Below are positions 48,405 to 49,701 of a DNA stretch of 64,000 nucleotides, in pieces. The first letter of the stretch is position 1; every line of letters begins with the position of its first letter. This stretch comes from Escherichia coli (GTDB lineage: Bacteria > Pseudomonadota > Gammaproteobacteria > Enterobacterales > Enterobacteriaceae): the NCBI RefSeq assembly GCF_030013205.1, contig NZ_CP122648.1; one strand, given 5' to 3'. A program made the translations under genes and the position numbers. The notes beneath the pieces are model-generated. The model ran no database searches. It saw only the letters and a list, made by a program, of their open reading frames with translations, and was not told where the DNA came from.

Positions 48405-49701
48405 ATGGCTGAAAGTACTGTAACGGCAGACAGCAAACTGACAAGTAGTGATACTCGTCGCCGCATTTGGGCAATTGTGGGGGCCTCTTCAGGTAATCTG
48501 GTCGAGTGGTTCGATTTCTATGTCTACTCGTTTTGTTCACTCTACTTCGCCCACATCTTCTTCCCTTCCGGGAACACGACGACTCAACTACTGCAAACAG
48601 CAGGTGTTTTTGCTGCGGGATTTCTGATGCGCCCAATAGGCGGTTGGCTATTTGGCCGCATAGCCGATAAACATGGTCGCAAAAAATCGATGCTATTATC
48701 GGTGTGTATGATGTGTTTCGGCTCACTGATTATCGCCTGTTTGCCAGGCTACGAAACAATCGGTACCTGGGCTCCGGCATTATTGCTTCTTGCTCGTTTA
48801 TTCCAGGGATTATCCGTTGGCGGAGAATATGGCACCAGGCCACCTATATGAGTGAAGTTGCCGTTGAAGGGCGCAAAGGTTTTTACGCATCATTTCAGTA
48901 TGTGACGTTGATCGGCGGGCAATTGCTAGCTCTACTGGTTGTCGTGGTTTTACAACACACCATGGAAGACGCTGCACTCAGAGAGTGGGGATGGCGTATT
49001 CCTTTCGCGTTAGGAGCTGTGTTAGCTGTTGTGGCGTTGTGGTTACGTCGTCAGTTAGATGAAACTTCACAACAAGAAACACGCGCTTTAAAAGAAGCTG
49101 GATCTCTGAAAGGATTATGGCGCAATCGCCGTGCATTCATCATGGTTCTCGGTTTACCGCTGCGGGCTCCCTTTGTTTCTATACCTTCACCACTTATATG
49201 CAGAAGTATCTGGTAAATACTGCGGGAATGCATGCCAACGTGGCGAGTGGCATTATGACTGCCGCATTGTTTGTATTCATGCTTATTCAACCACTTATTG
49301 GCGCGCTGTCGGATAAGATTGGTCGTCGTACCTCAATGTTATGTTTCGGTTCGCTGGCAACCATTTTTACCGTTCCTATTCTCTCAGCATTGCAGAACGT
49401 TTCTTCGCCTTATGCCGCTTTTGGTCTGGTGATGTGCGCCCTGCTGATAGTGAGTTTTTATACTTCAATCAGTGGAATACTGAAGGCTGAGATGTTCCCG
49501 GCACAGGTTCGCGCATTAGGCGTTGGTCTGTCATATGCGGTCGCCAATGCTATATTTGGTGGCTCAGCAGAGTATGTAGCGTTGTCGCTGAAATCAATAG
49601 GAATGGAAACAGCCTTCTTCTGGTATGTGACCTTGATGGCCGTGGTGGCGTTTCTGGTTTCTTTGATGCTACATCGCAAAGGGAAGGGGATGCGCCTTTA
49701 A
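48405..49701 (+). pseudogene. kgtP: Alpha-ketoglutarate permease gene kgtP interrupted by two apparent 1-bp deletions
   Basis: The KgtP sequence continues across three successive reading frames (ORFs 48303..48851, 48704..49216, 49117..49701); frame breaks near 48836 (...EYGT then stop) and near 49152 (a T-run one base short). Confidence 0.7.

Follow-up and report, generated by a model that had tools for sequence, protein, structure and literature searches.

The question raised by this locus is whether the gene for the alpha-ketoglutarate transporter KgtP has truly been lost or only appears broken in the sequence record, and, if the loss is genuine, by which steps it took place. In Escherichia coli K-12, KgtP (b2587) is an alpha-ketoglutarate:H+ symporter of the metabolite:H+ symporter family, within the MFS. 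Its counterpart in the window, which is the whole stretch of 64,000 nucleotides analysed here, is two nucleotides shorter than the ancestral gene, and the list of open reading frames (ORFs) follows the KgtP frame through three successive frames (Table 1). The identity of the gene is clear once the frame is repaired. The ancestral ORF, as it is preserved in the strain CFSAN018748, scores 950.9 bits against NCBIfam NF007710 (cutoff 550, covering positions 1-432 of 432) and 485.8 bits against TIGR00883 (cutoff 443). The repaired protein is identical to K-12 KgtP at 430 of 432 residues, the differences being V109I and A320T only, and the two genes occupy an orthologous position between the 5S rRNA gene of rrnG (rrfG) and yfiM/pssA.

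The whole window is identical to positions 1247726-1311725 of NZ_CP122643.1, a record of strain ETEC4079, which was isolated from pig faeces in Belgium. The RefSeq/PGAP annotation of that strain lists the gene QDW55_RS06355, 100% identical to the window kgtP, as a 'frameshifted' pseudogene. The frameshift in the source genome is therefore already known as an annotation, and the event is of an ordinary kind, in a gene that is well characterised. Of the 24 features at positions 37276-64000 of the window, kgtP alone carries the pseudogene flag in the RefSeq annotation of ETEC4079, and the 23 others, from raiA/bamD to rpoE, are annotated as intact. As judged from the gene order, kgtP is monocistronic and convergent with its neighbour yfiM, so polar effects are not expected.

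Aligned with K-12 MG1655 and with close relatives whose gene is intact, the kgtP coding sequence (CDS) shows exactly two indels, both of them deletions of one base. The first removes ancestral CDS nt 435 in codon S145 (AGC to AGG), at a site without a homopolymer. The second shortens a run of four T at ancestral CDS nt 750-753. An alignment of the window CDS to the intact CFSAN018748 allele shows 2 gaps and 0 substitutions in 1,299 nt, which rules out a chance match. These results bear out an earlier note on this DNA, which had described a gene split over three successive frames amid intact neighbours, and had named the same two changes (agcgcc to aggcc near 48836, and four T to three near 49152) at positions which lie within 1-3 bases of the aligned ones.

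Table 1. Positions in the window of kgtP, its two deletions and the ORFs left by them
Feature	Position	Strand	Description
kgtP	48405-49701 (frame 48405..48851, then to 49216, then to 49701)	+	1,297 nt; ancestral length 1,299 nt
Deletion 1	between 48838 and 48839 (feature 48837..48840)	+	C of AGCGCC gone, giving AGGCC
Deletion 2	49153..49155	+	ancestral T4 now T3; third base of G250 plus F251
ORF-A	48405..48851	+	144 native residues (TM1-TM4) + RPPI; sole product expected from native start
ORF-B	48848..49216	+	native M149-G250 (TM5, TM6, central loop) + 20-aa out-of-frame tail
ORF-C	49198..49701	+	native M266-L432, permease C-terminal part without intact TM7
Longer ORF-C alternative	ATG 49117	+	194 aa

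Two small sequence features accompany these lesions. Through deletion 1, a CCAGG motif has arisen at 48835-48839, which we take to be a Dcm methylation site; the ancestral CCAGCGCC is without the motif. Upstream of the gene, at 48340-48347 on the + strand and 58-65 nt before the kgtP ATG, a run of eight A varies in length from A7 to A9 among otherwise identical genomes, being A7 in K_EC180 and ETEC1701 and A9 in ETEC4067 and GCA_900195485.1. This variation could be real slippage or a homopolymer error of long-read assembly.

The consequence for the protein depends on where the frame is broken. An uninterrupted ORF of about 432 codons with 12 transmembrane helices, as expected of the MHS family, is absent from the window. 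Unlike the K-12 gene, the window kgtP cannot encode the 432-residue, 12-helix protein, and reading from the native start yields 144 native residues. Since the frame is lost at codon 145 and again at codons 250/251, the locus is a pseudogene of the KgtP family and not a functional member of it. The first break falls in a hydrophilic stretch between the hydrophobic cores of TM4 and TM5, a cytoplasmic loop, and the second falls inside the hydrophobic core of TM7. The fragments match partial MFS Pfam profiles only, an example of which is ORF-A, aligned to Sugar_tr at profile positions 3-124 alone. The exact 148-residue product of ORF-A is found on 31 contigs in NCBI and Logan. ORF-B, which is called by gene callers in public assemblies and is known here as a predicted ORF, starts at native Met149, whose ATG overlaps the stop of ORF-A (48849-48851) as ATGA at 48848-48851. 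An exact look-up of the mechanically derived ORFs of 194 and 170 residues in the protein collection returned no match, because gene callers pick the versions of 122 and 167 residues.

Such an arrangement of stop and start raises the possibility of a split transporter. Lactose permease split in its loops can reassemble. In genomes which carry deletion 1 only, gene callers report a second ORF of 284 residues, covering residues 149-432, and termination-reinitiation at ATGA could in principle give a loop-split permease there, composed of residues 1-144 plus 149-432 (N4/C8). Reassembly of a functional permease in the window is implausible, as the second break cuts TM7. No 12-helix MFS permease is expected to be made, and KgtP-dependent alpha-ketoglutarate:H+ symport would be lost.

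The distribution of the deletions among other genomes was determined with an exact 70-mer spanning each lesion, which was matched against 5,426 complete E. coli genomes. The 70-mer of deletion 1 occurs in at least 17 of them, the count being a lower bound since carriers with the other base at the polymorphic position 48815 score like the intact allele. All 17 come from pig or wild boar, sampled in France, Belgium, Japan and South Korea. Deletion 2 is also present in 14 of the 17; the remaining three, EC556, EC571 and EC581, are Japanese genomes with deletion 1 only. The carriers belong to a clonal pig-associated lineage which takes in O139:H1 ST1 edema-disease strains as well as the Belgian pig isolate ETEC4079. 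Examples of the former are P15-25 and W13-16 (O139:H1, ST1, Stx2e/F18 edema-disease strains), which were sequenced with PacBio and Illumina and assembled with Unicycler (PMC8798679). Independent draft assemblies, in which the CDS is free of SNPs, fall into the same two groups: both deletions in GCA_943790495.1 and in the NCTC assembly GCA_900450405.1, and deletion 1 only in GCA_900195485.1, GCA_021649045.1 and GCA_907166365.1.

The closeness of these genomes allows the order of events to be read. In the 15.9 kb between 48100 and 64000, 3 SNPs and the two indels separate the window from the intact strain CFSAN018748, which comes from swine in Denmark, and 1 SNP and the T-run indel separate it from EC556. 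The simplest history is a stepwise series within a young clone, from the intact gene to deletion 1, and then to deletions 1 and 2 together. The comparison with kgtP of close relatives, which the earlier note had proposed as a check, thus yields an intact near relative, CFSAN018748, and the same lesions in 17 and 14 complete genomes. An intact near relative and lesions repeated in independent assemblies are the marks of a unitary frameshift pseudogene, and both are found for kgtP. The note had also likened the loss to that of Shigella-like lineages. This analogy does not hold for the host, which is a pig STEC/ETEC lineage including O139:H1 ST1 edema-disease strains, and a literature search for kgtP with Shigella returned incidental co-mentions only, leaving the analogy without kgtP-specific support.

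Elsewhere in the species the gene is generally kept whole, with about 5,380 other complete genomes retaining an uninterrupted kgtP. In an evenly spaced sample of these other genomes, 57 of 59 copies aligned without a net change in length. The two exceptions are ZYB62, with an additional G in a run of five G at nt 71-75, and 14EC007, in which the gene is 5′-truncated. The O145 strain RM12275-C1 has in addition lost a G from the same G5 run of the kgtP CDS (nt 71-75, codons 24-25). This run is either a second indel-prone site of kgtP or the place of a pair of single-assembly homopolymer errors. Sporadic lesions of this kind fit a dispensable transporter; those seen in single genomes could also be assembly errors.

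The reading which best accounts for these observations, and to which a probability of roughly 0.94 is given, is that the window kgtP is a genuine allele without function, passed on by vertical descent, which arose in the clonal pig-associated lineage through two 1-bp deletions, one after the other. Of the two possibilities which the earlier note had set against each other, genuine pseudogenisation is the one favoured by the nested lesions in independent assemblies, and local sequencing error is not. In the first step, the C at CDS nt 435 was lost in the common ancestor of all carriers, placing a stop after 144 native and 4 aberrant residues. In the second, one T of the run at nt 750-753 was lost in a sub-lineage, breaking the remaining frame inside TM7. 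The most likely cause is that selection was relaxed and that drift acted on a clone of recent expansion. Deletion 2 may represent neutral decay of an already dead gene, or it may have removed a residual activity of a split permease. Metabolic models and phenotype predictions for the pig-pathogen lineage should treat alpha-ketoglutarate uptake by KgtP as absent. In addition, the two lesions are clean nested clonal markers, which could be used to sub-type isolates from edema disease and post-weaning diarrhoea.

The second deletion has a counterpart outside of the pig lineage. Its 70-mer is found in 41 genomes, namely the 14 of the pig lineage and 27 which carry an O145:H28-type kgtP allele. The latter comprise O145:H28 STEC, such as RM13514 and RM12581, and genomes sharing that allele, and the loss of one T is fixed in all 27 of these complete genomes. 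In RM13514 (ECRM13514_RS17135) the same change from T4 to T3 at nt 750-753 is likewise annotated as 'frameshifted' by PGAP and is fixed in the lineage. Unlike the window gene, the O145:H28 kgtP has the T-run lesion alone, with codon 145 intact, and its predicted product consists of residues 1-250 and a tail, compared with residues 1-144 in the window. The two alleles are separated by 38 substitution sites, located to the left and right of the T run and closest to it at 49081 and 49296. Given this distance, the O145:H28 deletion is of independent origin. The nearest uninterrupted full-length alleles to the O145:H28 type are at least 3 SNPs away and belong to other serotypes; O157:H7 genomes match at the full 1,299-bp length of kgtP, uninterrupted. 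An identical T-run deletion was thus fixed at least twice independently, which is a modestly new point; a literature search for kgtP with O145 found no paper. Chance, selection for loss or a hotspot of mutation may lie behind the recurrence. The kgtP CDS has 13 homopolymers of at least 4 bases, among which the T4 run is exceeded in length by the A6, T5 and G5 runs, so that a repeated hit at this run is mildly, but not strongly, surprising.

The most serious alternative to drift is that the loss of kgtP was positively selected. Here KgtP would be a liability, which could take the form of an entry route for toxic dicarboxylates or of a cost in the pig or ruminant gut, and the O145:H28 deletion would be a convergent adaptation. 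Such selection is considered unlikely, although it has some grounds in its favour. The same change from T4 to T3 is fixed in the 27 O145:H28-type genomes on a haplotype 38 substitutions away, and losses of kgtP have been published for laboratory-evolved E. coli and for host-adapted Salmonella. In lines adapted to glutarate and adipate, loss-of-function mutations of kgtP, including frameshifts, arose in all lines, and deletion of kgtP raised the tolerance (bioRxiv 10.1101/634105). In long-term stationary-phase cultures of E. coli, an IS3 insertion in kgtP was fixed (PMC7858067), and in the sheep-adapted Salmonella diarizonae ST432 kgtP is a pseudogene (PMC8549363). These published recurrent losses indicate that an adaptive route exists. 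In the Salmonella lineage and in the evolved cultures the same transporter was lost through frameshift, IS insertion or nonsense mutation; compared with the pig lineage, these are other organisms or conditions, with different lesions.

Several observations weigh against selection. First, only two natural lineages with a fixed loss are at hand. Second, the hit at the T run in the pig lineage came after the truncation, an order more in keeping with a mutational hotspot than with selection; a hit in an already truncated gene points to mutational bias or chance at that step. Third, a repeat at one of 13 runs of at least 4 bases is not very improbable, the sporadic lesions in ZYB62 and 14EC007 are expected for a dispensable gene, and the O157:H7 copy is uninterrupted and full-length. 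A more specific version, in which the loss is adaptive in certain livestock STEC because the import of alpha-ketoglutarate or dicarboxylates is costly or toxic, deletion 1 left a partly functional ATGA-linked split permease and deletion 2 was selected to abolish it, is more doubtful still. For the pig lineage the default therefore remains drift, with selection relaxed and the clone recently expanded, and the O145:H28 recurrence is a small testable lead on selected kgtP loss in livestock-associated STEC. A Keio-collection paper which names kgtP was set aside as irrelevant, since it concerns an intergenic kgtP/rrfG SNP and not the coding region. A candidate source paper for the Belgian ETEC40xx genomes (PMC11267873) was likewise set aside, as it deals with another set of strains.

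A further alternative concerns the relation between the two lineages, which might share the T-run deletion by descent through a short recombination patch. The haplotypes are identical between 49081 and 49296, so that no trace would remain of a patch below about 215 bp. Such an exchange would however have to be a very short conversion tract centred exactly on the lesion, with all 38 flanking differences kept on both sides, which is unparsimonious and makes it very improbable.

That both deletions arose locally as errors of sequencing or assembly, the gene itself being intact, is hardly credible. Deletion 2 does lie in a short homopolymer, and the variation of the nearby A8 run among assemblies shows some homopolymer noise or slippage in the records; deletion 1, on the other hand, lies outside any homopolymer. 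The lesions recur in identical form in multiple drafts and in 14-17 complete genomes, which were sampled in four countries, and they are carried by Illumina-polished hybrid assemblies too. Random error would not give a nested phylogenetic pattern next to a near-identical intact strain, and the error explanation was rejected because the assemblies of independent groups share the nested lesions.

Equally close to negligible is the idea that full-length KgtP is still made through programmed ribosomal frameshifting or transcriptional slippage at both sites, since both sites would require a -1 shift, no slippery heptamer of the form X XXY YYZ is present at either junction (C ACC AGG CCA and CGG TTT ACC), a stop follows 4 codons past deletion 1, and thousands of orthologues, including that of the sister strain, are a single ORF in which no frameshift is conserved. 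The one observation in favour of recoding is that the three pieces are all free of substitutions, a fact accounted for by the recent origin of the clone (1-3 SNPs over 15.9 kb). In genes with programmed frameshifts, such as prfB, dnaX and the transposases of the IS3 family, a slippery site is combined with a conserved shift; the window kgtP has neither, and recoding was rejected for the absence of slippery sites and the lack of conservation of the shift among orthologues.

Apart from kgtP, the window contains several further features. Between pheL and raiA lies an inserted P2-like prophage of about 34.6 kb (1960-36562). Its genes include those for an integrase (2046-3035), a replication endonuclease, ParM-like partition functions, and portal, terminase, capsid and tail proteins, as well as Hok/Gef and Com plus a DNA methyltransferase. 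The prophage is present in ETEC4079, K_EC180 and ETEC6333/6334 and is absent at this site in the O139:H1 strain P15-25, with which the window is collinear only from 36563 onward. Its flanks, at 1933-1959 and 36563-36589, form an imperfect 27-bp direct repeat, ACAAAAAACGCGCCCGAAGG(T/C)GCGTTG, which has a terminator-like hairpin sequence and is probably the duplicated attachment site.

In the 23S rRNA gene of the rrnG operon, seven mismatches to P15-25 are clustered within 11 nt at 46569-46579; aside from this cluster, the window and P15-25 differ at 9 positions across 27 kb. The clustering suggests that rrn copies differ from one another, that gene conversion has taken place, or that the copies were collapsed in assembly. 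Outside of the window, the P15-25 record contains another inactivated gene of the lineage: dgcN (yfiN), which codes for a diguanylate cyclase, has an internal stop and a pseudogene annotation at 3820065-3821291, some 18 kb away from the kgtP of that genome.
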